Positions 19,677-58,476 of a stretch of DNA of 64,000 bases are shown piece by piece (positions within the stretch are counted from its first letter, which is position 1; each line of letters begins with the position of its first letter). Source of the DNA: a bacterium (lineage in GTDB: Bacteria > Patescibacteriota > Dojkabacteria > B142 > OLB20); the NCBI GenBank assembly GCA_021463645.1, contig JAJTYI010000009.1:93343-157342 (forward strand), in the 5' to 3' direction. Both the position numbers and the translations under genes were made by a program. Under the pieces are notes generated by a model, which ran no database searches, was not told the DNA's origin, and worked only from the letters and a program-made list of their open reading frames with translations.

Positions 19677-19693
19677 TCTAATTACTTAAAAAA

Positions 19694-20152: not shown

Positions 20153-20168
20153 ATTTATTTTTTAATAA

Positions 20169-20537
20169 TTATTTTTTCTTCTTTTTTTTGTCCTTTTTAG
20201 CTTTTTCTTCTTTTCTGACTTCTTCCTTCAAAGCCGCTTCTTTTTTCTTATCAAGTTTATCAAGACCTAATTTCTTTACACCAAAATAAACAATTGCTGC
20301 TAATACTATGAAATCAATCAAATGTGCAACAAAACTACCAACACGTATTTCAGCATCGAGGATTGTGAAAGATAGGGTAGTCAAACCCTGCGCCTTGCCA
20401 AGCAGGATACCTAAGAATGGATTAACGATATCTTGAACAAGAGAGGTAACTAACTGAGTTACAGCAGTACCTAGAATGATACCTACTGCGAGTCCAACAA
20501 CTCCCTGCTCACGAATGAAGTTCATAAAACTTTTCAT
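20169..20537 (-). CDS. mscL: Large-conductance mechanosensitive channel
   Basis: FIREQGVVGLAVGIILGTA... N-terminus, two TM helices, Lys-rich C-terminal tail. Confidence 0.85.
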   Translation of the reverse strand: MKSFMNFIREQGVVGLAVGIILGTAVTQLVTSLVQDIVNPFLGILLGKAQGLTTLSFTILDAEIRVGSFVAHLIDFIVLAAIVYFGVKKLGLDKLDKKKEAALKEEVRKEEKAKKDKKKKKK

Positions 20538-30224: not shown

Positions 30225-31916
30225 CTATATTTTGGAAGGAGAATTTTTTCTCTTTCTTAGATATACTAACCCAGTCAACGTAATTATTACAGGGATACTA
30301 GCAGAGTTTACAGCCTTATAGATGTTTTTGTCTTCGTTATCAAGTGCCTCAAGTGGTCTCGTAGTAACACCTTTTGCACGTATTGAACTTAAGTCATTTG
30401 AATTTGCCATCCAATCAACAAGGTTCAAAAATAATACAGGATTCTGTTCGTTTGCATTAATAAAACTATCACTCACAAAGTCTGAATCCCCGAAAACAAC
30501 TAACCTTATGTTCTCGGCAGAATCAATTCTTTCATTTTCGTCTGTTCTTTCATCACTTTTACCGGTATCTGCCAAAGTAGGTATATCTTTATCCTTGTAT
30601 GCAGAATCAATTTTACCCTCTACAAGGTATGAAATTGTGTATTTTTTCTGATCTGAAGGGGAAAATTCCTTAAAGTCAATATTAATAACTTCTCCAGATT
30701 CTTCCCATGCTAGATTTGTTGTTGTGATTAGCTCGGTGTAATCCAAGCCATCTTTTTCATTTTTTGTAAGGGGGTTAGTCCAAAGGAAAGTACTCGCTTG
30801 AAGCGTATTTAGTGGAGGAATCTCTCTATTTATTCCCTCGTCTGTAGCCAATACCCAGTATGGATAGGCTATCTGATCAAACCCATTAATAATTGGAGTA
30901 AATGACTCATCGAGTAAGACTTTTGTTTCTACTGTTATTCCATAATTTTCCAAGAATGTATTTAGATTACTTTCTGTCTTTGTCAGAACCGGTGAGTTTG
31001 CACCCAGTTTCAATAGATCTTCAAGTACAAGAAGATTTCCACCATTCATAAGATATTGGTCTAGTTCGAATTTATCTCTATCATCAAGAGGTGCACTTGG
31101 TGCAACAACTACAACAACTGGAAATTCATCTACATTTATTGGTTTTCCACTTGAGAGATCGATTTCCTCAACTCCGTATTGTCTCCCTAATACTTCTTCT
31201 ATGGTAGTTAAACTACTTAATATTGATTGTGACTGTGCTGGTATTCCTGTCTCAGACTCTTCACTCTCAGGACTAGGAAATTTTGAGTAAAAGCCAATTT
31301 TCTTCTTGTCGTCAGATGCAGTGAGCTTTAATATTCTTGAAGTCGTTTCATACTCTAAATTATCTACAGAGGCAACCACTGGAATCACCTCTGTTACGTC
31401 ATCTTTAACGAAAGCTACACCTAGGAAACCCTGTGCAACTGAAAATTTGTCTTGTCCGTATTCACTGAATTGTATTTGTCGAATACCTTTGGTTTGTGCA
31501 CTTGTCTCAAAATCACTTGCTTGAGGATCTTTTATATCTAAGACTACTTTTCCATTTGAAGTTTTTGCGTACTCCTCGAGTAAATCAAGAACATTTTGTT
31601 TTGCTTCTGCAAGGTTGGGAGGAATATTATCCGAAAAATAGACTTCGATTATCACATTTTCTTCAAGTTCACTTATTATATCTTTTGTTGTTTGGCTTAT
31701 TGAGAAGTTTTGTGAGTCAGTAGTGTCTATTCTTACAAAATATTGAAGAGACAGGTAATTTATAAGAATCAGAACAATAACTGTAAGTATTAATATCGCT
31801 TTGTTACTCTTAAAATTATTCAGAATAGAACTGATATTTATTTTCTTAAATGTTTTTAATAATGACTTAACATTAGGTACTTCAATTTTTTTTATTTTTG
31901 GAATAGTAATCTTCAT
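30225..31916 (-). CDS. GldG-like ABC-transporter auxiliary component (ABC_transp_aux family)
   Basis: N- and C-terminal TM anchors, a large extracytoplasmic domain, and translational coupling to an ABC-2 permease and ATPase. Confidence 0.65.
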   Translation of the reverse strand: MKITIPKIKKIEVPNVKSLLKTFKKINISSILNNFKSNKAILILTVIVLILINYLSLQYFVRIDTTDSQNFSISQTTKDIISELEENVIIEVYFSDNIPPNLAEAKQNVLDLLEEYAKTSNGKVVLDIKDPQASDFETSAQTKGIRQIQFSEYGQDKFSVAQGFLGVAFVKDDVTEVIPVVASVDNLEYETTSRILKLTASDDKKKIGFYSKFPSPESEESETGIPAQSQSILSSLTTIEEVLGRQYGVEEIDLSSGKPINVDEFPVVVVVAPSAPLDDRDKFELDQYLMNGGNLLVLEDLLKLGANSPVLTKTESNLNTFLENYGITVETKVLLDESFTPIINGFDQIAYPYWVLATDEGINREIPPLNTLQASTFLWTNPLTKNEKDGLDYTELITTTNLAWEESGEVINIDFKEFSPSDQKKYTISYLVEGKIDSAYKDKDIPTLADTGKSDERTDENERIDSAENIRLVVFGDSDFVSDSFINANEQNPVLFLNLVDWMANSNDLSSIRAKGVTTRPLEALDNEDKNIYKAVNSASIPVIITLTGLVYLRKRKNSPSKI

Positions 31917-32635
31917 TTACCTTTATTTTGAATTTTATTAAAACTAAAAAGCGTAACCATAAAAGTGAGAATCATCACCGAAATGTAATAGAGAACATCT
32001 CTCGAGTCTAAAACACCGCGCGCAATAGATCTGAAATGTGCTCCGAGCCCAATGAACTCCATAATTTGATGATATCTTGCAGGAATAACCTTTAGAACAT
32101 CTTCCTCTCCAACTAAATATAAAATTGCAAGTAAAAACGAAGATATGATAAATGCGATAATCTGGTTTTTGCTATTAACTGATATTGCCAAACCAATGAT
32201 AATGTAAACTGAAGCAACAAGTAACAATCCAAGATATGCCGTCGCTGTTTGCCCGATATCAGGATTTCCCAGATAATTGACTGTGATAAACGCTGGAAGA
32301 GTAGTTAGAAGCATAAAAAATGCAATTACAAGATTACTAAAGAATTTCCCAAAAATTATCTGTAATTTTGTAACAGGTAGAGTCATTAAAACTTCAAGTG
32401 TGCCATTTTTGAGCTCTTCTGCAAAACTTCTCATCGTAAGTGCAGGAATGATTATAATCCAAATCAATGGAATGAATTCGAAAAGTTTTCTAAGATTCGC
32501 TTGATTGTCAACAAATACGTTTCTACTAAAATAAACACCAATCATTAATGCAAACACTCCAATCACAATGTAAGCGACTGGACTTGAAAAATATTCTCTT
32601 AACTCTTTTTTTGTAATATTAAATGTTTGTTTCAC
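31913..32635 (-). CDS. ABC-2 type transporter permease (GldF-like)
   Basis: Six-TM protein overlapping both neighbours by 4 nt. Confidence 0.7.
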   Translation of the reverse strand: MKQTFNITKKELREYFSSPVAYIVIGVFALMIGVYFSRNVFVDNQANLRKLFEFIPLIWIIIIPALTMRSFAEELKNGTLEVLMTLPVTKLQIIFGKFFSNLVIAFFMLLTTLPAFITVNYLGNPDIGQTATAYLGLLLVASVYIIIGLAISVNSKNQIIAFIISSFLLAILYLVGEEDVLKVIPARYHQIMEFIGLGAHFRSIARGVLDSRDVLYYISVMILTFMVTLFSFNKIQNKGK

Positions 32636-33546
32636 TTTGTAAGTTGTTTAAATAGATTTTCTAAATTATTACTTTCAGTATTTAACCTCCTGAGTATCCA
32701 TTTCGATTTTACTGCTGTCTTATAGATGTCAATTGATGCAGTTTCCGGATCCGTTGATATAACTTCGTAAGTATTAAATGTTTTTGACTTTGAGGATAGC
32801 TCTATACTCATAATCGATTTATTTCCAACCAATTTCTCTCTAAAACTATTCAAATTAGCATCGGATTCTACAATAATTCGTGTCCCTTTTATGTGTTTTT
32901 TACTAATTTCTGATGCTTTTCCACTTGCAACTATTTCTCCTTTATTGATAATAATCAATTCATCAGCTATTGACTCAACTTCTGATAATACATGGGAACT
33001 AAATAAAACAGTCTTTTCTTTTCCAACATTTTTAATTAGTTCTAGAATTTCAGACTTTTGATTCGGATCAAGACCTGTAGAAGGTTCGTCTAGAATTAGA
33101 TATTCAGGGCTTCCAATTAAAGCTTTAGCTAAACCTACTCTCTGTTTATAACCTTTTGATAGTTCATTAATTTCTTTTTTGAGAACTGATGTAAGACCAC
33201 ACTCTACGGCAAGTTTTTTTAAATCATCTTTATCACTATTTTTTACATTATTAATCATCAAAAGAAATTCGTCTACGCGCATATTGTCGTATAGGGGATT
33301 GTTCTCTGGGAGATAGCCAATTTTTGAGGAAATATCAATTTTATTCTCTAATAAATCTTTACCTTCGTATGAGACGGTACCTGAATCAGCATATAAATAA
33401 CCTGTCATTATTCTCATTGCAGTAGTTTTACCAGCACCATTAGGACCTAGAAATCCATAAATAATACCGGGCTTTAGAGAAAAACTAACATCCTGCAATG
33501 CGATTGTATCACCATATTTTTTGCTTACAGATTCTACTTTAATCAT
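32632..33546 (-). CDS. ABC transporter ATP-binding protein (GldA/CcmA-like)
   Basis: Walker A GPNGAGKTT, signature LSKGYKQR, Walker B LILDEPSTGLD. Confidence 0.9.
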   Translation of the reverse strand: MIKVESVSKKYGDTIALQDVSFSLKPGIIYGFLGPNGAGKTTAMRIMTGYLYADSGTVSYEGKDLLENKIDISSKIGYLPENNPLYDNMRVDEFLLMINNVKNSDKDDLKKLAVECGLTSVLKKEINELSKGYKQRVGLAKALIGSPEYLILDEPSTGLDPNQKSEILELIKNVGKEKTVLFSSHVLSEVESIADELIIINKGEIVASGKASEISKKHIKGTRIIVESDANLNSFREKLVGNKSIMSIELSSKSKTFNTYEVISTDPETASIDIYKTAVKSKWILRRLNTESNNLENLFKQLTK

Positions 33547-33685
33547 TTACAGTGGAGTAAAACATTTGACTAGAAATGAATTATAACCATACTCAGATTT
33601 CTATTGCAAGAATTTCATCTATATTCCCATCAATTAGTTTATCTAAAGAGCATTTCCGGGACAAATATTAATTTCAGTTATTTGC

Positions 33686-33726
33686 TTGACAGTTTTAGTT
33701 TGCAGGTATAATATATGAACGTTCAT
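33686..33726 (+). promoter_or_regulatory. Promoter (TTGACA / TATAAT-TAATAT) overlapping a 12-bp palindromic ArsR/SmtB-type operator
   Basis: TTGACA at 33686-91, TATAAT at 33707-12 (15-nt spacer) or TAATAT at 33709-14 (17-nt spacer). The perfect palindrome ATGAACGTTCAT at 33715-26 lies 10 nt before the regulator ATG. Confidence 0.55.
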
Positions 33727-33736
33727 TCATATATCT

Positions 33737-34042
33737 ATGTCGGAAATAATTTTAAAAAAAACCAGTATTTTGAAAATACTTGCAGATCCGTCAAGATATA
33801 AAATATTAGAGCTACTGATTAATTCAAACGGCAAACTTTGTGTCGGAGATATAGCAGAACAGTCAAAAAATTCACCATCTGCAGTATCACATCAATTAGC
33901 AAAGCTTGAATCAGCTGGGTTGATTAGTCCTTCAAGAAATGGACAACAAATATGCTACCGTTTAGAAAGTAACGAACAAGTAGATATTGTTTTAAAAATT
34001 ATGAAAACCTTAAGTACAAAAAATTTATATTCAATTAATTAA
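33737..34042 (+). CDS. ArsR/SmtB-family transcriptional regulator
   Basis: ILADPSRYKILELL...LCVGDIAEQSKNSPSAVSHQLAKLESAGLI wHTH. Confidence 0.85.
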   Translation: MSEIILKKTSILKILADPSRYKILELLINSNGKLCVGDIAEQSKNSPSAVSHQLAKLESAGLISPSRNGQQICYRLESNEQVDIVLKIMKTLSTKNLYSIN

Positions 34043-34066
34043 TTTATTATTTTATAAGGAGTAATT

Positions 34067-34384
34067 ATGAACGTAACAGATCAAAATTATAAAGAAGAAG
34101 TATTAGACTTCGATGGGGTGGTATTAGTTGATTTCTGGGCTCCGTGGTGTGGACCTTGCAGAATTCAAGGACCTATTGTCGAAGACTTAGCGGAAAAGAT
34201 GAAATCTAACCCAAAGGTGAAGATTGCTAAACTCGACACGGACCAAAATCCAAATGTATCTATGGCAAATCAAATCTTTAGTATTCCTACACTTATCATC
34301 TATAAAAACGGTGAGGTAGCAGATAAATTAGTTGGTTTGAGAAGCCCAGAAGAATTAGAGCAAAAGATTAAAGAACTGCTATAA
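34067..34384 (+). CDS. trxA: Thioredoxin
   Basis: WAPWCGPCR active site; 105 aa. Confidence 0.93.
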   Translation: MNVTDQNYKEEVLDFDGVVLVDFWAPWCGPCRIQGPIVEDLAEKMKSNPKVKIAKLDTDQNPNVSMANQIFSIPTLIIYKNGEVADKLVGLRSPEELEQKIKELL

Positions 34385-34405
34385 TAATGCAGTTATATCT
34401 AAAAA

Positions 34406-35734
34406 ATGAGTCAATCGAATAATTATCAACCAAGAACACTTCAAGGTTTCAACGACTACTTTGCAAACGATGTCCGAATTAGAGAATATACCAAGAATCT
34501 ATTTCGGACATCTTTTCAAAAATATGGGTTTGAACCATTAGAAACGCCTGCCCTTGAGTTTAGTGAGCTTATGCTCGGTCAAAGTGGAGAAGAAGCGGAG
34601 AAACAATATTATCGCTTCAGAGACAACGGAGATAGAGATGTAATGCTCAAATTTGAAGTGATGATTTCGATGTGTCGTGCAATTGCTCAGTCTTATAACG
34701 AGATTGTTTTTCCTTACAAGAGATATCAAATCCAAAATGTATGGAGAGCCGAGAAAGTCCAAAAGGGAAGATACCGTGAGTTCACTCAAATGGATGCTGA
34801 TATTCTCGGAACAGAATCAATGTTAGCTGATGCAGAAATCATCCAGATGGGAATTGAAGTAATCAAAATGCTAGGTTTTGAAGATTTTTCGGCCCGTATT
34901 AGCAACAGAAAATTTTTAGAAGGATTAGCTCAGTATTACAAAATCGATAAATCTAAATACTACGGCTTTTTTATGACAATTGATAAACTCGAGAAAGTTG
35001 GAAAAGATGCGGTGATTGCGGAACTCGTGGAAAGAAGAGATATAGAAACTCAAATTGCAAATGACAGTATTAACACATTAGTAAAAGGTAGTGAAATCAA
35101 TGATTTTAAAGAAACAATTAGATTCTTTGAGAGTACATTAGGACAAACCGAAATTGGTGAAGAAGCACTAAGTGAGATATCTCAAATAATAGATTATCTT
35201 TTCTCAGTAGGCATTGATAGCAAATATTATAAATTTGATCCTACTATTGCTAGAGGATTAGCGTCATACACTGGACCGGTATGGGAATTCACTGTTTACG
35301 ATGGAGGGGTAGGCTCCATTGCAGGAGGAGGTAGGTACGATAAAGCTATCGAAAAATATATTGGTAAAAATATTCCTGCAACTGGAATTTCATTTGGTCT
35401 AGAACGTATTTCGGACATTATTAAGTCTAGAAATATGTATAATCCTCAAAATGACTTAAAAGTATTAGTGACTGTTTTTTCCGAAGATGTAAAAAGCAAA
35501 TCAATTGAAGTAGCGAATGAATTAAGAAACAAGGATATTCCAACAATGCTTTATCCAGAGATTGCGAAATTAGAAAAACAATTTAAATATGCTGACAGGA
35601 AAAACATTCCCTATGTGATAGTAATAGGTCCTGATGAATTATCCTCTAACACAGTTCAACTAAAAGACATGTTAAACAGAACTCAAAATCAGATGGATTT
35701 AGAAAATTTATACAAGACAGTAAGCTCTAACTAG
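34406..35734 (+). CDS. hisS: Histidine--tRNA ligase
   Basis: Class II motifs (RYREFTQMDADILG, GGGRYD, ATGISFGLERI) plus a C-terminal anticodon-binding domain, so HisS rather than HisZ. Confidence 0.88.
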   Translation: MSQSNNYQPRTLQGFNDYFANDVRIREYTKNLFRTSFQKYGFEPLETPALEFSELMLGQSGEEAEKQYYRFRDNGDRDVMLKFEVMISMCRAIAQSYNEIVFPYKRYQIQNVWRAEKVQKGRYREFTQMDADILGTESMLADAEIIQMGIEVIKMLGFEDFSARISNRKFLEGLAQYYKIDKSKYYGFFMTIDKLEKVGKDAVIAELVERRDIETQIANDSINTLVKGSEINDFKETIRFFESTLGQTEIGEEALSEISQIIDYLFSVGIDSKYYKFDPTIARGLASYTGPVWEFTVYDGGVGSIAGGGRYDKAIEKYIGKNIPATGISFGLERISDIIKSRNMYNPQNDLKVLVTVFSEDVKSKSIEVANELRNKDIPTMLYPEIAKLEKQFKYADRKNIPYVIVIGPDELSSNTVQLKDMLNRTQNQMDLENLYKTVSSN

Positions 35735-36599
35735 AATGTTCTTTAAGAAATATTCTAGGAATCCGTTTTTTGGGTAGATATGTTTTTAATGTATATGAAA
35801 GCAATTCTATAAACCCAGGATCTACCTTTTTCGAATATACAATAAACGGATCTTTCCGAATTACTCTTAGTTTCCATTTATCAAGTCTAGTAGCATACTG
35901 TATAGGTCTTCTGTATCTTCTTGGAATAAATTTATATCCTTTTTCACCAATACCAACCCATTCTTCGAATCTATCAAATTGTAAATTCATGAAGTTTTTA
36001 AAGTCTTCTGGCTGTTTGATTATGATTTCATAATCTAGACTTTCTAAATTGAATTTTCGCAAATCTGATTTTGGAAAATACTGCCTCCCTAATTGTAAAT
36101 CCTCGTTTATATCACGTATGAAGTTTATCCATTGTGCTGATCTACCTAGATATTTCGCTGTCTTATATGCATCTGCTGGTAAATCGAGTACTTTGCACAT
36201 AAATAATCCAATTACTTCTGCCACTCCATATGAATATTCTAAAGTATCCTCTAGTGTATTATAAGTTTTACCACTTTGGTCCATCAACATACTTTCAAAC
36301 AATGCTTCAACCCATTCATCCTTAATCCCTTTCTCCTTTTTAATTCGGACAAATTCCTGAATAAGCTTAACATCTGAATGCTTGGTTTCTAATATTTTAT
36401 AATATTCCGCACGTATTTCATCAAAACTTAACTCTGTTTTTTCAGGTTCGTCAATTGAGTCATCAACAAATCTACAAAAGTTGTAAACTGCAGTAACATC
36501 TTCACGAATTTGAGATGGGAATCCAATTGCACTAAAAAAATATCTTTTACTTCCTTTATAAAATCGAGTGAAAAATTGTATCTTTTCTATTATTTTCAT
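35727..36599 (-). CDS. crtB: Phytoene/dehydrosqualene synthase family protein
   Basis: Asp-rich motifs CRFVDDSIDE and RDINEDLQLGRQYFP of the squalene/phytoene synthase family. Confidence 0.85.
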   Translation of the reverse strand: MKIIEKIQFFTRFYKGSKRYFFSAIGFPSQIREDVTAVYNFCRFVDDSIDEPEKTELSFDEIRAEYYKILETKHSDVKLIQEFVRIKKEKGIKDEWVEALFESMLMDQSGKTYNTLEDTLEYSYGVAEVIGLFMCKVLDLPADAYKTAKYLGRSAQWINFIRDINEDLQLGRQYFPKSDLRKFNLESLDYEIIIKQPEDFKNFMNLQFDRFEEWVGIGEKGYKFIPRRYRRPIQYATRLDKWKLRVIRKDPFIVYSKKVDPGFIELLSYTLKTYLPKKRIPRIFLKEHSS

Positions 36600-38080
36600 T
36601 AAATTGGATGATCCTTCATAATTAATTTTTCAGTCGTTTCAGCTGTTAGTAATACTCCAGGTACTCCCGCTCCAGGATGTGTGCTGGCACCAACCAAGTA
36701 GAGATTTTCAACATCTTCACTTCTGTTATGAGGTCGGAAGTTGGCACTTTGGAATAATGTTGGTTGCACTCCCCAAGCACTTCCTAGGTAATTATTTCTT
36801 TCTGAAAGAAAATCCATCGGTGTGAATACTTCCAGAAAATCAATATTTTTCTGTAAATCTTTCATGCCAAAGTCATTCTCCAAAAAGTTGAGTACTCTTC
36901 TTGTAAACCTATCTTTCTCAACTTTCCAGTCAACATCAGCTTTGAGATTTGGAGTAGGAATCAAAACATACATTGATTCACAACCTTCAGGAGCCATTGA
37001 ACTATCGGTTTTAGTTGGAACATGTAGATACATCGAAAAATCATCCGCCAGTATTTTATTTTCAAAAATATCATCAATTAGTCCTTTGTATCTTTCGGAT
37101 AAAATCAAAGTATGATGCATCAATTCTGGATATTGTTTTTTTGTACCAATGTAGGCAAGATAACAACTCATAGAATATTTCATCTTATTTACATTATCTT
37201 TCTTCCATTTAGTGAGTTTATCTTGTTCAATTAAATCTTTGTACGTGTGAGCGAAGTGAGTATTTGAAACAACTAGGTCAAATTTTTCTTCACCATTTTT
37301 TGTTTTAACACCAACAGCTTTTCCATCCTCTATAATAATTCTATGGACTTCAGTTGAAGTCTTCACGATTCCTCCATGCTTTTTGAAAACTTTCTCTAGT
37401 GCCTCAATCAAAGAATACATTCCGCCTTCTGTAAACCAAACTCCTCCGACTTTCTCAAGATATGGAATCATCAGGTATAAAGAAGGAGAGTTAAAAGGAC
37501 TACCTCCAATAAACAATGGATGGAAAGAAAAGATGAATCTGCTCCTGAAATCCTTGAAGAAAAATTTGACGTTAGTATAGCAAGATAACATTGATTTTGT
37601 GCTGATTATTTTGGGCGCCGCCTTGAAAAAGTCCTTCATTGATAAAAATGGTTGTGAGCCCATCCTGTCCGAAATAACTATTTTGTATAATTTAGAAGAA
37701 TATTCCATAAACTTATCATATGCTTTCGCATCATCTTTATTGAATTTTGCTAATTGACTTTTCATCGCATCGCTATCACCGTTGTAATCTATGAATGTTT
37801 TATCGTGAAAATAGATTCGATAATATGGATCTAGTGGAATGTACTCTAGATATTTTTCTCTTTCTTCACCAGTCGATTTAAAAACATCATCGATTATTTC
37901 GGTAGCCGTAATTAAGGAAGGCCCCATATCAAAAGTATATCCATCTTTCTTAAGCTGGTAAGCGTGACCTCCCACTTTTTCTTGTTTCTCGTAGATTGTT
38001 ACTTTGTAGCCACGACCTTGTAATCGCACAGCTAAGGCTAATCCACCAAATCCCGAACCAATTATTGCTACTGTTTTCAT
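36599..38080 (-). CDS. crtI: Phytoene desaturase (CrtI family)
   Basis: N-terminal FAD fold VAIIGSGFGGLALAVRL...YEKQEKVGGHAY, and C-terminal LYLVGASTHPGAGVPGVL. Confidence 0.88.
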   Translation of the reverse strand: MKTVAIIGSGFGGLALAVRLQGRGYKVTIYEKQEKVGGHAYQLKKDGYTFDMGPSLITATEIIDDVFKSTGEEREKYLEYIPLDPYYRIYFHDKTFIDYNGDSDAMKSQLAKFNKDDAKAYDKFMEYSSKLYKIVISDRMGSQPFLSMKDFFKAAPKIISTKSMLSCYTNVKFFFKDFRSRFIFSFHPLFIGGSPFNSPSLYLMIPYLEKVGGVWFTEGGMYSLIEALEKVFKKHGGIVKTSTEVHRIIIEDGKAVGVKTKNGEEKFDLVVSNTHFAHTYKDLIEQDKLTKWKKDNVNKMKYSMSCYLAYIGTKKQYPELMHHTLILSERYKGLIDDIFENKILADDFSMYLHVPTKTDSSMAPEGCESMYVLIPTPNLKADVDWKVEKDRFTRRVLNFLENDFGMKDLQKNIDFLEVFTPMDFLSERNNYLGSAWGVQPTLFQSANFRPHNRSEDVENLYLVGASTHPGAGVPGVLLTAETTEKLIMKDHPI

Positions 38081-38084
38081 TTTA

Positions 38085-38810
38085 TTATTGAACTAGATTA
38101 TATTTTTTGAATAAAACAACAAATATTAAAATACTTATAATTACCGGGATATACATACCAAGCTTAATACTCAGAAAAGTCCAAAGTAGTAGATTTCCTA
38201 AGTAAATCATAATTAGATATTTGTTTTCTAGTGTTCGTTTTCCAAGAAAGAAAAATACAACTAATGAAGAGACAATGGCAGAAAAAATCCAACCCATAAA
38301 ATTTAAGAATGGCACATCGTAATACATTCCAGGTTTTTCCCAAATCCAGAATCCTAATCCAGTTGCAACAGGATCAAAAACTAAATCCAAAAGAAGAAGT
38401 AATATTACTGTGTAAATAATCTTATATATCCTATTTTTTGTGATGAATTCACTTAATGAGTATGCACTAATCACAAGAGACGGCCAAATTAAAAAAACTG
38501 TATATGGAACAATATCTGCTATCTTATAACCCATCAAGTCCGAATAACTAAATCGCGAGTATGGAAATCCAGTTTTAATACTAAGAGTTTCAATAAGTAA
38601 TCCGTAAATTCCTACTATCATGAAAACAGTTACCGCTGTTCTTAGGTTAGAAGATTTGTATAAGATGTAAAATCCTATACATCCTAATGCTAGTAAAATA
38701 ATTTGTAACATTAGCGGAAATAGGGCGAAGTCCTTGGTAAGATAAATCAAAGGAGCACTTATTACGTTTACAATTAAAACAGCCTTAATTTCATTTAGAG
38801 AAACTTTCAT
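38085..38810 (-). CDS. cruF: Polytopic membrane protein, putative carotenoid hydratase (CruF/Caroten_synth-like)
   Basis: ~7 TM helices and the size of the family. The position between a UbiA-type elongase gene and crtI mirrors crtD-lyeJ-cruF clusters. The assignment is mainly contextual. Confidence 0.5.
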   Translation of the reverse strand: MKVSLNEIKAVLIVNVISAPLIYLTKDFALFPLMLQIILLALGCIGFYILYKSSNLRTAVTVFMIVGIYGLLIETLSIKTGFPYSRFSYSDLMGYKIADIVPYTVFLIWPSLVISAYSLSEFITKNRIYKIIYTVILLLLLDLVFDPVATGLGFWIWEKPGMYYDVPFLNFMGWIFSAIVSSLVVFFFLGKRTLENKYLIMIYLGNLLLWTFLSIKLGMYIPVIISILIFVVLFKKYNLVQ

Positions 38811-39664
38811 TTATAGAGATTGATTACAAATATAATTGAAAATATAAAGCCTACAATAAAATTTATATAAGGGAAAAACCAATATGTTTTATTAATATCA
38901 AATTTCTTGAGATTTAAATTTAACAAAGGGAGAGCAGGGTAAACAAGTAAGATTAATGTGAAAGGAAACAAATACCCTGTATTTAAAATCCATAGAAATG
39001 CTACTAACCATAAAATATTACAAACTACGAGTGAAACATTTTTCCCTAAAAGAATTGCAGTGGTTTTAAGTCCTGCCTTCTTGTCTGCTTCGATGTCGGG
39101 GATTGCAGAATATAGGTGCATGGCGACTGGAAAGATAAACAATATTGGGAGAATTTGTAAATTTGGAAGGGTAGGGGTATTAATCAAAAAACCAATAATT
39201 CCAGGGAATGCATAGAAAATATTACTCAGTGAATCGATAAACGGTCTTTTCTTGAATCTTGCAGGTGGAAGACTATATGATCCACCTAATATCATAAAGA
39301 GAATCAACCATATTGAGATTTGCGGAATAGCATACGAGATTAATAAGGATAGAATAACAACTACAATTACTCCGTATAAAAGATACTTCTTATGTGATGC
39401 TTCTAATAAATTTTCTTGCATACCTTTTTTAGGATTAAACTTATCAGTATCTTCATCAGCTAAATCGTTTACTCCATATACAAATAGGTTGGCAGGAAAA
39501 ATAAAAAACAATAGGAGAATAATAAATCTCCAATCTAGTAATGCTGTTGGATCTGGTTCTTGTAGTCCTGCAAAGAATCCAAATAAAAATGTCCCAAATA
39601 AATACGACCAAAATTTCGGTCTAGAAGTTTTATAAAAAAATCTGATTAAGTTATTTTTTCTCAT
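38807..39664 (-). CDS. lyeJ: UbiA-family prenyltransferase, lycopene elongase (LyeJ/CrtEb)-like
   Basis: N-terminal TSRPKFWSY, Asp-rich motifs NDLADEDTDKFNPKK and IPDIEADKKAGLKT, ~8 TM helices. Flanked by carotenoid genes. Confidence 0.65.
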   Translation of the reverse strand: MRKNNLIRFFYKTSRPKFWSYLFGTFLFGFFAGLQEPDPTALLDWRFIILLLFFIFPANLFVYGVNDLADEDTDKFNPKKGMQENLLEASHKKYLLYGVIVVVILSLLISYAIPQISIWLILFMILGGSYSLPPARFKKRPFIDSLSNIFYAFPGIIGFLINTPTLPNLQILPILFIFPVAMHLYSAIPDIEADKKAGLKTTAILLGKNVSLVVCNILWLVAFLWILNTGYLFPFTLILLVYPALPLLNLNLKKFDINKTYWFFPYINFIVGFIFSIIFVINLYK

Positions 39665-41150
39665 TTAATTCGTCGGAAATTTTATCAGATAAAATTCGTG
39701 CTGAAGCAACACAAGCGGATAAACCAGAGCCTGGATGAACATATTGACCTGTATAGTATAGATTATCCAACTTCTTGCTTTTATAACCCACTCTTAAGAA
39801 TCCTGTTTGTTTGAGATTGTTTGCTAAACCAAGAGCAGTACCTTTATAAGCATGGAAATCCTGTTTAAAATCGTTAACAGTAAAAATCTTTTTGTAGATT
39901 ATGTCATATTTAATTTCTTCCCCGATTACACCTTCAAAGTGCCTAATAATTTTATCGAAATATGTAATTCTCAAATTGTCATTATCCTCTACACCAGCGG
40001 GGATAGGAACTGTAAAGAATAAGTTTTCACTATTTGAAGGTGCGACAGTAGGGTCAGTTTTGCTCGGAGCACATACATAATATGCTGGCTTCTGTGGCCA
40101 AATATTAGTATCACTGAATCCTTTGAAATGCTCCTTCCAATCTCTATCTAGAAACAAATTGTGGTGTTGAAGATTTTTCAGTTTTTTATTAACACCTAAA
40201 TATACTATAAATGCTGAAGCACCAATTTTCTTGCTTGACCAGTATTTTTCATCGTATGTTTGATATTTTTTATCCAGAATTTCAAGTTCTGTGTGAGCAT
40301 AGTCTCCATTCATAACAACTAAATCTGTAGATTCCTTTTGTCCGCCACTACTTATAACCGAAGTAATATTTTTGTCCGAATAATTGAACCCAGATACGTC
40401 AAAATTAAATTTATACTCTACTCCTAATTTCTTGCTCAATTTATAGATAGACGTGAAGAGCTTTCCTATACCACCTTTGGGGTAATACACTCCTTTCTTG
40501 TAATCAGCATATGACATCATTGCGTATAACCCAGGAGCATCCTCAGGATGCGAACCAAGTAAAGCCACGCCATATTGAATAATTCTTTTTAATTCCTCAG
40601 TTTTAAAATATCTTGAGCAGAGCTTCTCATAGTTAGAGAACAAATCACTTGCTGAAATCCCTTTGAATTCCTTTAACAGGGATCTGTCCATCAGAACTTT
40701 GCGTGAGGTCAAGTCTTTATAGAAAAGTTTTCCGACAAGTACTTTATATAATTTCTCTGATTTTTCTAGATACTTTCTAAAATTCTCTCCAGAACCAGGC
40801 TCAATGTCCTCAAATATTTTTATATTTTCTTCGATATCTGTACTTATATCTACAACTTTACCTTTTGGTAAAAAAACTCTGTATGATGGGTCCAGCTTCA
40901 CAAGTTCTAGATAATCATTGATATCTGCATCGAAGAGTTTAAAGAAATCGTCAAAAACCTCAGGTAATAAATACCAAGATGGTCCCATATCAAAGATGAA
41001 GTCATTAGCTTTTAAGACTCTTCCTCTTCCACCATAAATTGAATTTTTCTCAACAACCGTTACGTCATATTTGTCTTTTGCTAGCAAACAAGCGATGGAC
41101 ATGCCTGAAATGCCTGCACCGACGACAATAGCTTTTTGTTTCTTTTTCAA
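39651..41150 (-). CDS. crtD: CrtI-family carotenoid desaturase (CrtD-like 3,4-desaturase)
   Basis: FAD fold AIVVGAGISGMSIACLLAK...VVEKNSIYGGRG and C-terminal LYYTGQYVHPGSGLSA. Second CrtI paralog in the cluster. Confidence 0.75.
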   Translation of the reverse strand: MKKKQKAIVVGAGISGMSIACLLAKDKYDVTVVEKNSIYGGRGRVLKANDFIFDMGPSWYLLPEVFDDFFKLFDADINDYLELVKLDPSYRVFLPKGKVVDISTDIEENIKIFEDIEPGSGENFRKYLEKSEKLYKVLVGKLFYKDLTSRKVLMDRSLLKEFKGISASDLFSNYEKLCSRYFKTEELKRIIQYGVALLGSHPEDAPGLYAMMSYADYKKGVYYPKGGIGKLFTSIYKLSKKLGVEYKFNFDVSGFNYSDKNITSVISSGGQKESTDLVVMNGDYAHTELEILDKKYQTYDEKYWSSKKIGASAFIVYLGVNKKLKNLQHHNLFLDRDWKEHFKGFSDTNIWPQKPAYYVCAPSKTDPTVAPSNSENLFFTVPIPAGVEDNDNLRITYFDKIIRHFEGVIGEEIKYDIIYKKIFTVNDFKQDFHAYKGTALGLANNLKQTGFLRVGYKSKKLDNLYYTGQYVHPGSGLSACVASARILSDKISDELNEKK

Positions 41151-41200
41151 TACGTGATAAAATAATCCAATAGAGTATTTTAACTGTTTTAGATATTATA

Positions 41201-42901
41201 GTGAAGACAAATTACGAAGAAGTGAGAAAGGAAAACACCCCCCCACATGTAAAATTATGCACACTCTCAGGAAATAGCGAAGTAGGTAGAAATTGTTCTT
41301 TCATTGAAGATCGACAAAATATAATCGTGATTGATGCGGGGTTGTCGTTCCCCGAACAAGAGCTTTTTGGAATTGATTACCTAATCCCAAATCTCGAATA
41401 TTTGAGTAAAAACAAACACAAAGTTCGAGCTATTTTCATAACCCACGGACACTTAGACCACATCGGAGCATTACCATTCATATTACCTCTTTTGGGATAC
41501 CCCAAAGTCTATGCTGGTAGTTTTGCAAGTGAATTAATCAAACAAAAACTTAAAGAATACAAAATACTTGATAAAACGAGACTTATAGTAGTCAAAAGAA
41601 ATACCGAAATTCAAATTGGAAGGATGAAGGTGACCTTCATCGGTGTTACCCATAGTATTCCTCATGCATTCTCGATTTTTGTCGAAACATTAGCAGGAAA
41701 TATTTTTTTCTCAGGAGACTTTAAGATTGACGAAACCCCAGCTAATGAGCAACAAACAGATTATCAAAAACTTAGAAGTCTACAAGGCAGGATAGACCTA
41801 GCTCTAATAGAAAGTACAAATTCTAGTTCGGCTGGCAAATCCACTTCAGAGACAGAGGTATCAGAAACCATCGAAGAATTACTTCGTAGTGCATCTGGGC
41901 GAGTAATCGTTGCTTCATTTGCATCTCAAGTCTCTAGGTTGTATGTAGTTAGCAAAACAGCCTCTAAGCTCGATAAGAAAGTATTACTTTTGGGCAGAAG
42001 CTTGAAAGATGCATTCAGAATAGCGAAAGAGCTTAAGTATATTGACCTTCCAGAATCATTATTTATCACTCATAATGACCTGAGTAAATATCCTGACAAT
42101 AAGATTGTGATTCTGTGCACTGGTAGTCAGGGGGAGCAATTCGGTGCTTTAAGTCTATTATCAAAAGGTGAGAATCGGTTTGTGAAAATCAAAGCTGGTG
42201 ATAGAGTCATTTTATCTTCTTCTGAAATCCCTGGAAACGAATATAAAATAGGTCGAATGACTGACAGACTTGTTAAATTGGGTGTCGAGTTGATTACTAA
42301 TAAATTAGATACTGTTCATGCCACTGGTCATGGACTACAAGAAGATGTAAAAACAATGTTTGAGATGATTAGACCAAAAAATATCATGCCTATACACGGG
42401 ACATTAACAATGCGCTACTTCAATAAACGTAACTTTATTGGATGGGGTATGAAAAGTGATTCTATCCACCTCACAGATGATGGACAAGTATGGGAAGTAA
42501 GTAAAAACCTCATAAGACGAGGAAAAGCAATACAATCAAAGCCAGTAATGATTGATGCAATGGGTATTAGTGATTTAGGCGAAGTAGTACTTAGAGATAG
42601 GGAAGTTCTGGCAGAATATGGAATGATTTGTATGGTTATAAACCTGAGCCATAAAACTAAAAAAATAATTGGAAGGATTAGATTCGCCTCGCGAGGCTTC
42701 ATTTATATGAACAAGTCTGAGGAGCTCTTAAAGGAAATTGAAAATGAAATTTATTCAGTTCATAATGGATGGTTGGAAGATTCTAGAAAGAACAATAAAC
42801 TAGAAATTAACAAATTCAAAGAAGCACTGTCAAAACACATCTCAAAATTCCTTTACAAGAAGACCAAACGTGAACCGTTAATTATGATAGTCATAATTTA
42901 A
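41201..42901 (+). CDS. rnj: Ribonuclease J
   Basis: Metallo-beta-lactamase motif ITHGHLDHIGALPF, beta-CASP region, C-terminal domain. GTG start. Confidence 0.88.
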   Translation: MKTNYEEVRKENTPPHVKLCTLSGNSEVGRNCSFIEDRQNIIVIDAGLSFPEQELFGIDYLIPNLEYLSKNKHKVRAIFITHGHLDHIGALPFILPLLGYPKVYAGSFASELIKQKLKEYKILDKTRLIVVKRNTEIQIGRMKVTFIGVTHSIPHAFSIFVETLAGNIFFSGDFKIDETPANEQQTDYQKLRSLQGRIDLALIESTNSSSAGKSTSETEVSETIEELLRSASGRVIVASFASQVSRLYVVSKTASKLDKKVLLLGRSLKDAFRIAKELKYIDLPESLFITHNDLSKYPDNKIVILCTGSQGEQFGALSLLSKGENRFVKIKAGDRVILSSSEIPGNEYKIGRMTDRLVKLGVELITNKLDTVHATGHGLQEDVKTMFEMIRPKNIMPIHGTLTMRYFNKRNFIGWGMKSDSIHLTDDGQVWEVSKNLIRRGKAIQSKPVMIDAMGISDLGEVVLRDREVLAEYGMICMVINLSHKTKKIIGRIRFASRGFIYMNKSEELLKEIENEIYSVHNGWLEDSRKNNKLEINKFKEALSKHISKFLYKKTKREPLIMIVII

Positions 42902-43510
42902 TCAGTGACCGCCTAGAAAGCACTTTGACGTATCATGTCTCTTTGCTGTGCAATAATATCTCCCATAAAGAACCAGACTTTGACTTAGAAATCCCCACTT
43001 ATCTCTAGGGAATAATTCCATCAAGTCTTTTTCGATTTTGTCAGGGTTAGAATTATTAGTTAATCCCAATAATCTGGATATTCTAATCACGTGTGTATCA
43101 ACTGCTATCCCTTCATTTTTACCAAAAGCATTATATAGGACTACATTTGCAGTTTTTCTTGCTACTCCAGGGAGTTTTATTAATTCTCGCATTTCATCTG
43201 GTACTTTCCCATCAAATTCTTCAACAATTTTTTTAGCCGTAGCAATTATTTTCTTTGTTTTTTGGTTATAAAAACCTGTAGAAAATATAATCTTAGCAAC
43301 TTCATCTTGACTTGCTTCACTCATCTCTCTGGGGGTAGGGAAGCGTCCAAATAGAACAGGTGTGACTTTATTAACTCTAGCGTCTGTACATTGTGCAGAT
43401 AGAATTGTCGCTACTAATAATTGGAAGGGATCTTTGAAATCAAGCTCAGACTTTGCATCAGGAAATTTTTCCTCTAACTTATCCAATACGCCGTTAATAT
43501 TAATCACCAT
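42902..43510 (-). CDS. nth: Endonuclease III-like HhH-GPD DNA glycosylase, lacking the complete Fe-S cluster loop
   Basis: DPFQLLVATILSAQCTDARVNKVT and the HhH LPGVARKTANVV...DTHV match Nth. The C-terminus ends YYCTAKRHDTSKCFLGGH with only 2 of the 4 cluster Cys. Confidence 0.8.
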   Translation of the reverse strand: MVININGVLDKLEEKFPDAKSELDFKDPFQLLVATILSAQCTDARVNKVTPVLFGRFPTPREMSEASQDEVAKIIFSTGFYNQKTKKIIATAKKIVEEFDGKVPDEMRELIKLPGVARKTANVVLYNAFGKNEGIAVDTHVIRISRLLGLTNNSNPDKIEKDLMELFPRDKWGFLSQSLVLYGRYYCTAKRHDTSKCFLGGH

Positions 43511-46500
43511 ATCTGATAGTAATGGAGTTTAGTGCAGGCGATTGTAATTGATCTGATTCTATCAACAACCTGTATTGTATAAATTGTTTCCCTTGAATTA
43601 CTTTAGGTAATACGTAACCTTCGTTTGTACCGCTAAGAGTAAAGAACGTTCCTCTGGTGCCATCTGGACCATACCATTCTTCGTTTGAGAGGTTGCTAGA
43701 ACTACCCGATCTAATCTGAATCTTTATTTCACCACCATTTTTAGCTTCATCCCATACGATTGAATGATAATATTTTACAGGAGTTCCCATATCTTTTACT
43801 TCTGATAAATATTCCCCATATTTAGCATAACCACTAGGTAATGCTTCACCTTGCATCAAGGTAAGTTCTTCATTTGTGGAATCGGAAGTGATATAGACAT
43901 ACTCAGAACCTACACCGTTCTTCGCGATTTTAATGTCAGTGGCTTTAATATTAGTTCCAATACTATATGAACACTGGAGTCCATCAATAATATTGTATAC
44001 ATGATATTGATTAGTCGCAGAATATCCGGCAGTAGCGAAGTTATTATTATCTAATCCAACTATTCCTAATGGCGACATATTCACAGAATTAATACCAGTA
44101 ACGAGATCAAGTGAATTATCTATTAAAATATCAAATGAGTAGATGTCTGGGATATGTTCTGTTCCATCAGCGGCGACATAAAACCTTGGAAGTATACTTG
44201 TTGTCGTATCCAAATCTAATCCTTTTCCACTTACTACTCCATCAAAACCAGTTAATCCAAATTCTGAGGTGCTAAGTAGAGTAGTACATGCAAGCTGACC
44301 GCATTCAGTTGCTGTTGCACTAATATATTTATGTCCTGGTGGAAGCGTTAAACCAGTAATTACTTTAGGTGTGATACTGAAATTGTATGTCGGACTTCCT
44401 GCTCTACTGATTTCAGTGTGGATATGATTTGCACCTTCTCCAAAACCTGTATCATCACTGGAGGCGCTCGAGTAGAAATCTAGTCGATAATACTTCCCAC
44501 TTTCACTCTGGAAACCTCCATAAACTGATAATGTTGTCCCCACATATGTCGCTTTCGTCAACACAGGGAAATTCTGTAAATTATTTGGACCATCTCCTGC
44601 TAATGTCGAATCAGTATCACCTTTATCATTGAAACTCACTTTGTCACCAGTTGATGTTCTAAGATTGATTCCCATACCGGTGTTGTCATAAATACTATTT
44701 TCAATAATCGTATTATTTTCTGAGCTATTATTACCGACAATTGAGATTCCATCACTAGCATTGTTTCTAATAGTATTTTCTCGAATAAGTGAATTTTTTG
44801 TTCCAGAAAGATAAACGCCATAACTTGAATTTCTTGCAATTATGTTTCCGTCTGCAGGGTTTGTTCCTCCTATGACATTGTTCGTTGCAACTGGAGAGAT
44901 AAATTGTATTCCATATTTATTACCTAGATTGGCATCAGATGAATTCGTACCGATGTAATTGGATTTTATGGAGATTCCTGAGATTGGTGAACCATATCCA
45001 TAAATTCCAGCACCTCTAACTGCTCCAATTATTATGTTGTTCGTTACAGTTGCAGTTGAGAAGGTGGACCCATTACTTGAGAATAATACTACTCCATAAG
45101 TAGAATCCATTAACTTTGCATTTCCAGCTCTATTGATTCCGATGTAGTTATTATCGACTGTAATTCCTGAAATTGCACCAGTCGTAGTACTTAAGGAATA
45201 AATTCCAGAATTCACAGCAACAATCTGATTATAAGATATGTTGAGATTTGAAACCTTAGTAACTTTAATTCCATCGTAATTAGTAACTTGATTTGCGCCA
45301 GTTTTATCCACCCCGATGTAATTAGCCTCAATGACATTGTCATTGCTTCCTGATGTACCTGCGATGTAGTTTATACCACTCGCACCATTACCTGATATTA
45401 CATTACATACACCTGTACAACTGGCAGGCAGACTATTTAAATCTGCATCTCCAATTTCTATGCTTGTTGAATTATCAATTTCAATACCTGCTGTCGTGTT
45501 TCCTCGTGAATACTCACCAGCCTTATTGGTACCAATATAATTTCCTTGAACTACGTTGGTATTCGAAGATTTGATTTGTAAACCAATATAATTACCACTT
45601 ATGATATTACCTTGACCTGCGGCAGAACCTCCGATAGTATTTCCAGTCGAAGTTGATTCTAAAGTAATACCGCTTTCACTATTGCCCACGATGGTAACAC
45701 CATCTTGAGCAAGTCCGATTATATTACATTGAACAGTTCCTCCTGTGCTTGATGTGTAGTTAATCCCCCTAGAGAATCCATGAATCACTAGACCTTTTAC
45801 TATGCCTCCTGTGGTACTGGAGAAAGACAGTCCTGGACTACTAAGGTTAGCACCTGCTAACACGACTCTTAAATCTTTTGTTGTGCAGTCTGAACCAGTT
45901 TGAGTTGTTCCATCAATCTGGAGTGAGTTTGTTATCGTAGGAAGAGCACTCGATAGACTGATGGTATGTGGTCCGGTCCCAGGAATATTAAAGATAATCT
46001 TGTCAGCATTGGTAGTAGAATTTGCTTCTTGTATCGCTGCCCTCAAAGTACATTTACCTGAAGCCGTATAACAATCTAAATCTCCGATATCAGCATCACT
46101 TTCATCTAGTGTTGAATTTACTACATATCTTCTTGCGTCAGGGTCCCCAAAAATTGTAAAATCATCAATCGCACCCATCGCAGGCTCAGTACCAGTATTA
46201 TGTAGATTTCCAATATAAAGAGTAGGGTTGCCAACCATATCACTAAATACAGTTCCTGTTTTTGTTGGTGTAGGTCTTTCGTTGTCCAAAAATAATTTCA
46301 AGTCATCAGGAGTACTTTTTGTTCTATCCCATTCAGCTCTAATCTTTGTCCAGTTTCCCAATTTCCAATATGATGACCAGTTTGCATATGGAATTTGAAT
46401 GCTCTTAGTCGAGGTGGCATGAGTATACTCTAACCAAAGAGGACTTGATCCACTTTGTTTATAAAGTCTGAATTGATTTGAGTCATCAACTCTAACATTG

Positions 46501-53204: not shown

Positions 53205-53581
53205 TCAGTTGCTGTAATATCTGCTATTGTCTTTTGAGTATTATAACTAGATGACCGATATTGACTTTCAACGTTTATAACCCGATTATTACCGCTAGTT
53301 TTTGCAACTGTTGCAGAACATTCACGTTCTGCGTCTATCACAACGGAGAAACTTTCTGTCGTAGTATTTGCATAGGCTGGGTTATTTCTACTAATTTTAT
53401 AGTATGCTTCTTCCAAACATGTAAAAGCGGTATTCTGAGCATAGATTTGATTTGTATAGCTTGTCGTGGAATTTGCAAAGTCCAACGCTTGGAAAATTAA
53501 AACAATTGCAGTGAAGACAAATAATGCCGAAAATACCAAAACAGTGGTTAATGCAACGTTCCCTCTAAGGTTTTCCATCAA
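53189..53581 (-). CDS. PilX-N-like pilus assembly/minor pilin protein
   Basis: N-terminus LRGNVALTTVLVFSALFVFTAIVL resembles the PilX N-terminal domain (RGxxLxxxLxxL). 4-nt overlap with the upstream pilin gene. Confidence 0.5.
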   Translation of the reverse strand: MMENLRGNVALTTVLVFSALFVFTAIVLIFQALDFANSTTSYTNQIYAQNTAFTCLEEAYYKISRNNPAYANTTTESFSVVIDAERECSATVAKTSGNNRVINVESQYRSSSYNTQKTIADITATEWVIN

Positions 53582-54081
53582 TCAAAAATATATGAATTTG
53601 TGAATTCGTTACTAATGGAGTTATCAGCTCTAGATCTGATTCCCACAGTAATCTCCACACCTATATTAGTATCGCTATTATCTAGAATTTCTTCAAGTAA
53701 AAATTTGGTAACTTCAACATCGTTCCTTGTGATTTGTTTGGTTATAGCACCATCGAAAAACTGTAGCCTTGCGTCACTTGTGGCAAAATCAGATACAGTA
53801 TAGTTAATATTAGTAGGACCTGTTAAATACAAGGCTCCATTATTATTATTAAAAATAGTTGATCCCCCAATAGACGTTGTTCTTTCAAAACTATCTTCAA
53901 AATGTTGTGATAATAAAATTATCGCTCGATCAATTTTTAATGCTTCTCCTGAAAGTTGGTTATTATCTTCAACAAAAAAGAAAAAATTAATCATAACAAC
54001 AAAAAACATCCCAAATATTGCAAGATACACGAGAACCTCAATTAACGTCATTCCTTTTAGTTTCTTTCTGTCGAAAATCAT
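53578..54081 (-). CDS. Minor (pseudo)pilin with prepilin-type N-terminal cleavage/methylation motif
   Basis: KKLKG|MTLIEVLVYLAIFGMFF. Confidence 0.8.
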   Translation of the reverse strand: MIFDRKKLKGMTLIEVLVYLAIFGMFFVVMINFFFFVEDNNQLSGEALKIDRAIILLSQHFEDSFERTTSIGGSTIFNNNNGALYLTGPTNINYTVSDFATSDARLQFFDGAITKQITRNDVEVTKFLLEEILDNSDTNIGVEITVGIRSRADNSISNEFTNSYIFD

Positions 54082-56311: not shown

Positions 56312-56339
56312 TTAATTTTGATAATTTTAATTAACAAAT

Positions 56340-58381: not shown

Positions 58382-58430
58382 GCTGATAAATATTAATATA
58401 ATATAACTTATCGTTTTTATTAATTTAAAG

Positions 58431-58460: not shown

Positions 58461-58476
58461 TAATTTTCACTTTTAG

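Follow-up and report, generated by a model that had tools for sequence, protein, structure and literature searches.

A putative five-gene operon for an acyclic C50 carotenoid in a genome of the Dojkabacteria

Background

Does a bacterium with a reduced genome make its own C50 carotenoid of the kind known from haloarchaea? This question is raised by five adjoining carotenoid (crt) genes on contig JAJTYI010000009.1 (GenBank assembly GCA_021463645.1; lineage Patescibacteriota, Dojkabacteria, B142, OLB20), of which we analysed a stretch of 64,000 nucleotides (positions 93,343 to 157,342 of the forward strand; hereafter the window, in whose numbering its coordinates are given). Bacteria of the Candidate Phyla Radiation (CPR; also named Patescibacteria), to which this host belongs, are thought to be host-dependent for lipids and most building blocks. 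A preliminary description, made from the letters of the window alone, had read the locus as a bacterioruberin-type cluster. Our analysis suggests that the five genes probably constitute a functional operon that makes a bacterioruberin-type acyclic C50 carotenoid from geranylgeranyl diphosphate (GGPP).

The five-gene operon and its haloarchaeal counterpart

All five genes lie on the minus strand between 35727 and 41150, exactly at the positions and in the order first described. The operon begins with a crtD-like carotenoid desaturase gene of the CrtD/CrtID clade (39651-41150; 499 amino acids, TTG start, N-terminal FAD-binding motif GAGISG), followed by the gene for a LyeJ-family UbiA prenyltransferase, a putative lycopene elongase/1,2-hydratase (38807-39664; 285 amino acids), and by that for a CruF-family (Caroten_synth) membrane protein, a putative hydratase of C50 isopentenyl side chains (38085-38810; 241 amino acids). 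The last two genes are crtI, for a phytoene desaturase (36599-38080; 493 amino acids, N-terminal FAD-binding motif GSGFGG), and crtB, for a phytoene synthase of the SQS_PSY family (35727-36599; 290 amino acids, Asp-rich motifs DDSID and DINED). In operon order, the first two pairs of neighbours overlap by 14 nt and 4 nt, the third pair is 4 nt apart and the fourth shares 1 nt, which bears out the earlier statement that all the genes overlap or lie within 5 nt of each other. The gene lyeJ adjoins both the CrtD-type desaturase gene and cruF, through the first and second of these overlaps, and at its 3' end crtB shares 8 nt with hisS, which is convergent to it.

In families and in gene order, crtD-lyeJ-cruF matches the haloarchaeal bacterioruberin triad, as the preliminary description had pointed out, and in haloarchaea, too, crtB is found nearby. 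The reference systems are Haloarcula japonica c0507-c0505 (Yang et al. 2015), Halobacterium salinarum Lye (Dummer et al. 2011) and Haloferax HVO_2528-2526. We found the same order in loci of Haloarcula, Haladaptatus and Halopiger and in RefSeq-annotated clusters of Halocatena and Halarchaeum, while two plasmid-borne haloarchaeal copies lie in RefSeq-annotated crtI-prenyltransferase-cruF-crtB clusters. The haloarchaeal proteins are 36-38% (LyeJ), about 38% (CrtD) and about 28-33% (CruF) identical to those of the window. The systems differ in host, a reduced-genome bacterium here and a halophilic archaeon there, and in that the window operon holds a separate bacterial-type CrtI, whereas the desaturase of the halobacterial cluster is now annotated as a bifunctional CrtID.

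The prenyltransferase, the desaturases and the CruF-like protein

The window prenyltransferase is a member of the LyeJ family and a putative lycopene elongase/hydratase. It matches UbiA PF01040 at 82 bits, and its best NCBIfam match is NF009516/PRK12875 at 265 bits, above the curated cutoff of 205; on this model the genes in the lyeJ position of cultured Haloarcula, Haladaptatus and Halopiger reach 441-451 bits, and homologs from a cultured Methanobacterium, a Thorarchaeote, a Saccharibacterium and an Armatimonadote 264-344 bits. On the actinobacterial elongase family NF009608/PRK13105 it reaches 112 bits against a cutoff of 217, whereas the elongase of Arthrobacter reaches 469. A grouping with quinone or heme prenyltransferases, which had been named as the contrary outcome, is not what we find: models for quinone, heme, chlorophyll and tocopherol prenyltransferases give 19-55 bits against cutoffs of 180-555 (MenA 20-32, UbiA 19-36 and ChlG/BchG 28-33, all far under cutoff; the best, homogentisate phytyltransferase, 55 with a cutoff of 226). 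The Asp-rich motifs first described are present, NDLADEDTD at residues 66-74 and DIEAD at residues 190-194. Within their pattern (N66-D67-xx-D70-x-D72-T73-D74 and D190-xxx-D194), the residues N66, D67, D70, T73, D74, D190 and D194 are invariant across an alignment of 49 homologs. A neighbour-joining tree places the protein within the PRK12875 group, in a clade with its Dojkabacteria relatives at 98% support and at a long branch from the Arthrobacter elongase. That elongase served as comparator in the tree; a plasmid search for comparators yielded haloarchaeal clusters and one Arthrobacter locus only.

The genomic setting of the family was surveyed in the best 80 of at least 583 matching stretches among species-representative genomes. 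In 76 of these 80 loci, crt genes lie beside the LyeJ homolog, a context that ties the family strongly to its function.

The two desaturases of the operon belong to different clades. The upstream copy matches PF01593 and scores 409 bits on TIGR02734, and in a neighbour-joining tree of the cluster-linked desaturases it falls inside the clade that holds haloarchaeal CrtD, with the CrtI clade, including the downstream window copy, set apart at 100% bootstrap. Its best NCBIfam match is NF058655 (CrtID). Haloarchaeal CrtD proteins adjoining lyeJ score 740-769 bits on this model and the single desaturases of other clusters 648-696 bits, the range of 648-769 being made up of cluster desaturases from haloarchaea, methanogens, Saccharibacteria, Thorarchaeota and Armatimonadota. 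A literature search for the publication behind the NF058655 "CrtID" model found nothing relevant, and its meaning, a bifunctional phytoene/3,4-desaturase, was worked out indirectly, from the above-cutoff scores of haloarchaeal CrtD and from the white phenotype of the Haloferax HVO_2528 (crtD) mutant (PMC8305020). The scores fit both that phenotype and a recent pathway scheme in which a haloarchaeal CrtD-type enzyme is used for lycopene formation (PMC13358004).

By its sequence, the downstream copy belongs with the ordinary phytoene desaturases of bacteria. It scores 533 bits on TIGR02734 (crtI_fam, cutoff 238), and a database-wide search showed 60-64% identity to the phytoene desaturases of Calditrichia, Kapabacteria and Saccharibacteria. 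An Asgard origin of the operon had been considered, prompted by the sister position of the window CrtI to that of Thorarchaeota (100% bootstrap) in the tree confined to cluster-linked desaturases. It was ruled out by these identities of 60-64%, against 43% to the Thorarchaeota protein, and the sisterhood in that tree is a sampling artefact.

The product of 38085-38810 carries a clear family signal, found with the hidden Markov model that the preliminary description had proposed for this purpose: Caroten_synth PF04240 matches at 151 bits (cutoff 25) over profile positions 5-208 of 209. Its best NCBIfam match is the archaeal CruF model TIGR03460, and a hydropathy scan gives about 7-8 transmembrane segments, in agreement with the seven-segment CruF-like protein first reported.

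Proposed pathway and alternatives

The haloarchaeal gene set and order, the membership in PRK12875, the crt linkage of 76 of 80 homologs and the separate desaturase clades together argue for a bacterioruberin-type pathway. Chance can be dismissed as an explanation in view of the strong profile matches and of an arrangement kept across independent assemblies. Every enzymatic step, like the C50 product itself, is proposed here by homology, modelled on the pathway of Haloarcula japonica (Yang et al. 2015) as summarised in PMC13061102. CrtB would join two molecules of GGPP, obtained from a synthase encoded elsewhere in the genome, to give phytoene, which CrtI would desaturate to lycopene. At each end of lycopene, the LyeJ-family protein would then add a C5 unit from dimethylallyl diphosphate at C-2 and hydrate the 1,2 bond, and the CrtD-type desaturase would put in the 3,4 double bonds. 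Finally, the CruF-family protein would hydrate the added isopentenyl groups, giving bacterioruberin, a tetra-hydroxy C50 product. All hydroxyl groups would derive from water, and no O2 would be needed for them. As a polar carotenoid spanning the membrane, the product would be likely to stiffen it and to shield it from oxidants and light.

Several points weigh against this proposal. The upstream desaturase reaches 570 bits on NF058655, below the curated cutoff of 640, and CrtB reaches no CrtB equivalog cutoff. The CruF-like protein stays under both bisanhydrobacterioruberin-hydratase equivalog cutoffs (TIGR03460, 119 against 155 bits; NF041333, 94 against 300 bits), although these are nonetheless its two top-scoring models. 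The prenyltransferase shares only the 36-38% identity given above with haloarchaeal LyeJ, and since the deep nodes of its tree are unresolved, the tree does not make it the specific sister of the characterised haloarchaeal enzymes; to our knowledge, the biochemically characterised members of this LyeJ family are all haloarchaeal. CrtI-type desaturases need an electron acceptor, either O2 or quinone, and quinones are usually absent from CPR bacteria. Like the preliminary description, we also found no GGPP synthase in the window. Pfam and NCBIfam scans of the window open reading frames tested, four of which were annotated via the identical contig L001, gave no polyprenyl synthase, and tblastn of the 64 kb with four cluster-linked GGPP synthases gave noise only (E<=10). 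A supply of GGPP from elsewhere in the genome is nevertheless plausible because mevalonate-pathway enzymes have been reported in Dojkabacteria (PMC6107057) and C10-C20 isoprenoid synthesis across CPR classes (PMC9166423).

Alternatively, the end product might be an elongated (C45 or C50) acyclic carotenoid other than bacterioruberin proper, such as bisanhydrobacterioruberin-like diols or a compound with different hydration. The divergent CruF-like protein would in that case act as a 1,2-hydratase or on another substrate. Besides falling below both hydratase cutoffs, it also matches the gamma-carotene 1'-hydroxylase CruF model (79 bits), and cruF shows the lowest conservation in the operon (67% protein identity to locus L007 of the sister species, against 93-97% for its neighbours). 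Moreover, 44 of the 80 LyeJ-family loci have no cruF within the examined flanks, which suggests that the family often works without CruF. We regard such a product as unlikely because the best match is still the archaeal bacterioruberin-type TIGR03460, the adjacency of lyeJ and cruF with a 4-nt overlap is the haloarchaeal arrangement and cruF is under purifying selection.

A pathway that stops at C40 would need the UbiA protein to prenylate a substrate other than lycopene, with CruF and CrtD forming hydroxylated acyclic carotenoids of the rhodopin or didehydrorhodopin type. CruF and CrtD alone do form C40 pathways in other bacteria, e.g., those to deinoxanthin and myxol, and elongase activity in the LyeJ family has been characterised within Halobacteria only. 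But the prenyltransferase passes the PRK12875 cutoff and gives at most 55 bits on quinone, chlorophyll and tocopherol prenyltransferase models, its gene overlaps both crtD and cruF, its homologs are crt-linked in 76 of 80 loci, its Asp motifs are intact and its gene is under purifying selection, all of which makes a C40-only outcome improbable. A C50 carotenoid of the bacterioruberin type thus stays our preferred reading, and the way in which the operon has been kept in related genomes also bears on it.

Conservation and selection

At the DNA level, region 30810-47664 of the window shares 89% identity with a 255-kb contig of Candidatus Dojkabacteria bacterium AMR_MDS_5875, and the nearest named protein relatives of the window are Dojkabacteria as well. 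The names of cluster members give no habitat, and the record names JAGQLL01 and WANG18-1 may point to wastewater or activated sludge. Six independent assemblies carry the operon in intact and identical form. Its slot, with the order giant surface protein, endonuclease III, RNase J, the five crt genes, HisRS, thioredoxin, ArsR and ABC transporter, is also where the operon is found in relatives whose LyeJ proteins are 88%, 63%, 57% and 55% identical, and in several species it sits between hisS and rnj on contigs that are 92-255 kb long. In comparison with the sister species (L007), dN/dS is 0.07 for crtD, 0.06 for lyeJ, 0.085 for cruF, 0.04 for crtI and 0.12 for crtB, values that resemble those of the adjoining RNase J, HisRS and thioredoxin genes. 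All five crt genes are under strong purifying selection and the operon is selectively maintained; dN/dS of 0.04-0.12 across lineages down to 55% identity points to long-term function.

Recombination patches are visible inside the operon, in cruF and crtB. Towards L007, cruF has a dS of about 2.6, against 0.1-0.7 in the flanking crt genes, and crtB has 91.8% nucleotide identity in a strain that is identical over lyeJ-cruF-crtI (comparison of the window with L001/L002). The slot can also be empty. In L102, from a Dojkabacteria lineage with an RNase J 71% identical to that of the window, the same flanks enclose, where the window has its five crt genes, a single PNPOx-like gene of 151 amino acids (L102 7188-10725, against 34406-42901 in the window). 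Because this equally related lineage lacks the operon at the same slot, the operon is an accessory module. The variable segment seems to take in hisS, since HisRS of L102 is 29% identical to the window enzyme as against 59-64% in the crt-bearing relatives; the window HisRS reads KFE where the L102 enzyme reads RPE. In more distant Dojkabacteria/WS6 the synteny differs and no crt genes lie near RNase J.

It is very improbable that the operon is silent, orphaned or mis-binned, as a recent transfer or a contaminating contig without precursors would be, and that no pigment is made. The empty site of L102 does mark the operon as dispensable, and neither a regulator nor a GGPP synthase lies nearby. 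However, the GC content of the operon (31-34%) matches that of the window (31-39%), and both the embedding between hisS and rnj on long contigs of several species and the low dN/dS across lineages speak for a resident and working operon.

We infer that the operon promoter probably lies in the 50 bp (41151-41200) that separate crtD from the divergently oriented RNase J gene. A single weak sigma-70-like match (TTCACT-17-TAAAAT, 9 of 12 positions) lies on the minus strand at 41205-41177. A promoter and terminator scan of the operon region gave no signal above shuffled expectation, and promoter-like matches were not enriched.

CrtB and the length of the backbone

CrtB scores 143 bits on SQS_PSY PF00494 (cutoff 26). 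With this match, the NF058655 score and clade of the first desaturase and the TIGR02734 score of the second, the CrtD-like, CrtI and CrtB assignments of the preliminary description are all upheld. When the window protein is aligned to CrtM of Staphylococcus aureus, Ala24 lies opposite Phe26, the bulky residue at the chain-length position, and the best-scoring CrtM entry of the PDB is a variant with Ala at the Phe26 position. Ser, Thr or Ala occupies this position in all 70 of 70 cluster-linked CrtB homologs, among them 21 of 21 from clusters with an embedded GGPP synthase. Umeno and co-workers are said to have found in 2002 that a small residue in place of Phe26 lets CrtM use GGPP. With Ala24 opposite Phe26, and a small residue in all 70 homologs, a C40 backbone is the better reading than C30. 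A C30-based pathway, in which a CrtM-like synthase would use farnesyl diphosphate (FPP) and diapolycopene would be elongated, is the most improbable of the alternatives: it would explain the missing GGPP synthase if only FPP were needed, as for undecaprenyl phosphate, and would suit the failure of CrtB to pass any CrtB equivalog cutoff and its top matches in the PDB (E of about 1e-15) to C30 dehydrosqualene synthases (CrtM), but it conflicts with Ala24 and the Ala-variant CrtM, with the small residue in all homologs from GGPP synthase-bearing clusters and with the 60-64% identity of CrtI to C40 phytoene desaturases.

Distribution of LyeJ-family clusters

Patescibacteria account, by label, for 19 of the 80 best loci, and LyeJ-family clusters occur in at least nine Patescibacteria groups besides Dojkabacteria. 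A polyprenyl (GGPP-type) diphosphate synthase is embedded in 24 of the 80 loci (L009 6901-7986, L017 6946-8007, L081 6940-7998 and 21 further loci) and in 12 of the 19 from Patescibacteria, typically between crtB and lyeJ, which gives a self-contained crtID-crtB-GGPP synthase-lyeJ module. These embedded synthases have DDIMD and (K/R)DDxLG motifs, and their best NCBIfam matches are IdsA/GGPP synthase-like. The usual Patescibacteria layout comprises one CrtID-type desaturase, crtB, the embedded GGPP synthase and lyeJ; cruF is present in 4 of the 19 loci and a second desaturase in 2. Clusters of this kind, with or without cruF, are common in other Patescibacteria, Armatimonadota, DPANN archaea and methanogens, and share with the window the LyeJ family, the CrtD/CrtID clade and an adjoining crtB. 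They have one desaturase and often a GGPP synthase, whereas the window operon, with two desaturases, cruF and no GGPP synthase, is an unusual layout for CPR bacteria.

The genes lyeJ, crtD and cruF have been predicted before in Patescibacteria of Lake Baikal (Baikalibacteria and Saccharibacteria), for which a role in cold membranes was proposed (Haro-Moreno et al. 2023, PMC9948471). Window and Baikal genes agree in the three families and in the inferred product, but the Baikal genes are dispersed, with cruF far from lyeJ and crtD or with the genes on different reads (PMC9948471). In the Dojkabacteria of the window they stand together with crtI and crtB in one translationally coupled operon of five genes, for which there is evidence from synteny and selection. 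The occurrence of lyeJ, crtD and cruF in Patescibacteria is thus not new, having been published in 2023, and the Dojkabacteria operon is a further instance; our literature search found no paper linking Dojkabacteria to a carotenoid pathway. The preliminary description was right to speak of a metabolically reduced lineage, as which the CPR host qualifies, but its view that a pigment pathway is unexpected in a metabolically reduced lineage was overstated, given the 2023 report, the 19 Patescibacteria loci and the nine or more other groups.

Actinobacterial C50 clusters (the locus of Arthrobacter sp. StoSoilB13, L087, and that for decaprenoxanthin in Corynebacterium) likewise hold a UbiA elongase among crtB and crtI. 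The order of the Arthrobacter C50-type cluster is GGPP synthase-crtB-crtI-...-elongase, and its elongase, of the PRK13105 family as scored above, is 28% identical to the window protein. Unlike clusters of the crtE-crtB-crtI-...-crtEb type, the window operon has a CruF.

Complete LyeJ-family carotenoid clusters are also present in strict anaerobes, namely in a cultured Methanobacterium, in metagenome-assembled genomes (MAGs) of Methanolobus, Methanocalculus, Methanospirillum and Methanomassiliicoccales, and in Bathyarchaeia and Thor-, Hermod- and Heimdallarchaeota (loci L077, L035, L038, L057, L063, L080, L018, L041, L064 and L078). Their desaturases and elongases score above the CrtID and PRK12875 cutoffs. 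In Methanobacterium sp. ACI-7 (L077; NZ_CP166866.1 80824-97621) the cluster consists of crtID (5653-7110), crtB (7167-7952), lyeJ (8001-8798) and cruF (9011-9571). Searches of the literature turned up no account of such C50 carotenoid clusters in either methanogens or Asgard archaea, and the family is far wider, including both, than the "haloarchaea plus a few Actinobacteria" of reviews.

The labels of some MAG contigs look doubtful, namely those of L009, L014, L021, L034, L072 and L083 ("uncultured Gammaproteobacteria") and of L010 (Saccharibacteria). L009 groups with the Magasanikbacteria sequence L047 at 82% bootstrap, and the other five of the first set fall among Patescibacteria sequences with low support. 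The 2.6-kb contig L010 lies inside the Dojkabacteria clade, and its CrtI is 70% identical to that of the window.

A wider reading, possible but held only tentatively, would combine three elements: a lineage of ultra-small CPR bacteria, auxotrophic for lipids, that makes its own membrane-spanning C50 tetra-ol, an operon that behaves as a recombining accessory module, and bacterioruberin-type carotenoids that are primarily O2-independent membrane lipids. As the LyeJ module is common in strict anaerobes (methanogens, Asgard and DPANN archaea), these carotenoids would be O2-independent lipids and not haloarchaeal sunscreens. If this were true, a CPR organism would for the first time have been shown to make a pigment or a membrane-reinforcing lipid, a rare case of autonomous membrane chemistry in this radiation, and uncultured Dojkabacteria would gain a testable optical marker, by absorbance or Raman. 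At 5.4 kb the operon is compact and lends itself to expression in Escherichia coli, which would give the first test of a LyeJ-family enzyme outside Halobacteria.

Other features of the window

The open reading frame at 17299-18645 codes for a class II cyclobutane pyrimidine dimer (CPD) photolyase (TIGR00591, 616 bits; cutoff 550), as had been proposed. The light- or oxidant-exposed lifestyle that the preliminary description read from it is plausible, but the link is circumstantial. The photolyase gene belongs to a row of stress and repair genes on the minus strand (17299-20537), together with those for a NUDIX hydrolase, an AhpC/peroxiredoxin, a HIT protein and MscL, and the endonuclease III gene (42902-43510) lies one gene, that of RNase J, away from the crt operon. 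This row and the endonuclease would fit oxidative or ultraviolet stress, again circumstantially.

A glmS ribozyme is found on the minus strand at 16697-16869 (Rfam RF00234, 47 bits; gathering score 37), with the GlmS gene (14878-16662, minus strand) downstream of it, followed by phosphoglucosamine mutase-like and GlmU-like genes. The ribozyme marks the host as a bacterium. On the other side of the operon, the gene at 43500-50459 (minus strand) codes for a secreted or surface protein of 2319 amino acids with repeated modules and beta-helix-like regions, which has the same position in relatives. It is followed at 50460-58920 (minus strand) by type IV pilus genes, including PilB- and PilC-like ones, among whose products are pilin-like proteins with LamG and LRR domains behind N-terminal methylation motifs.

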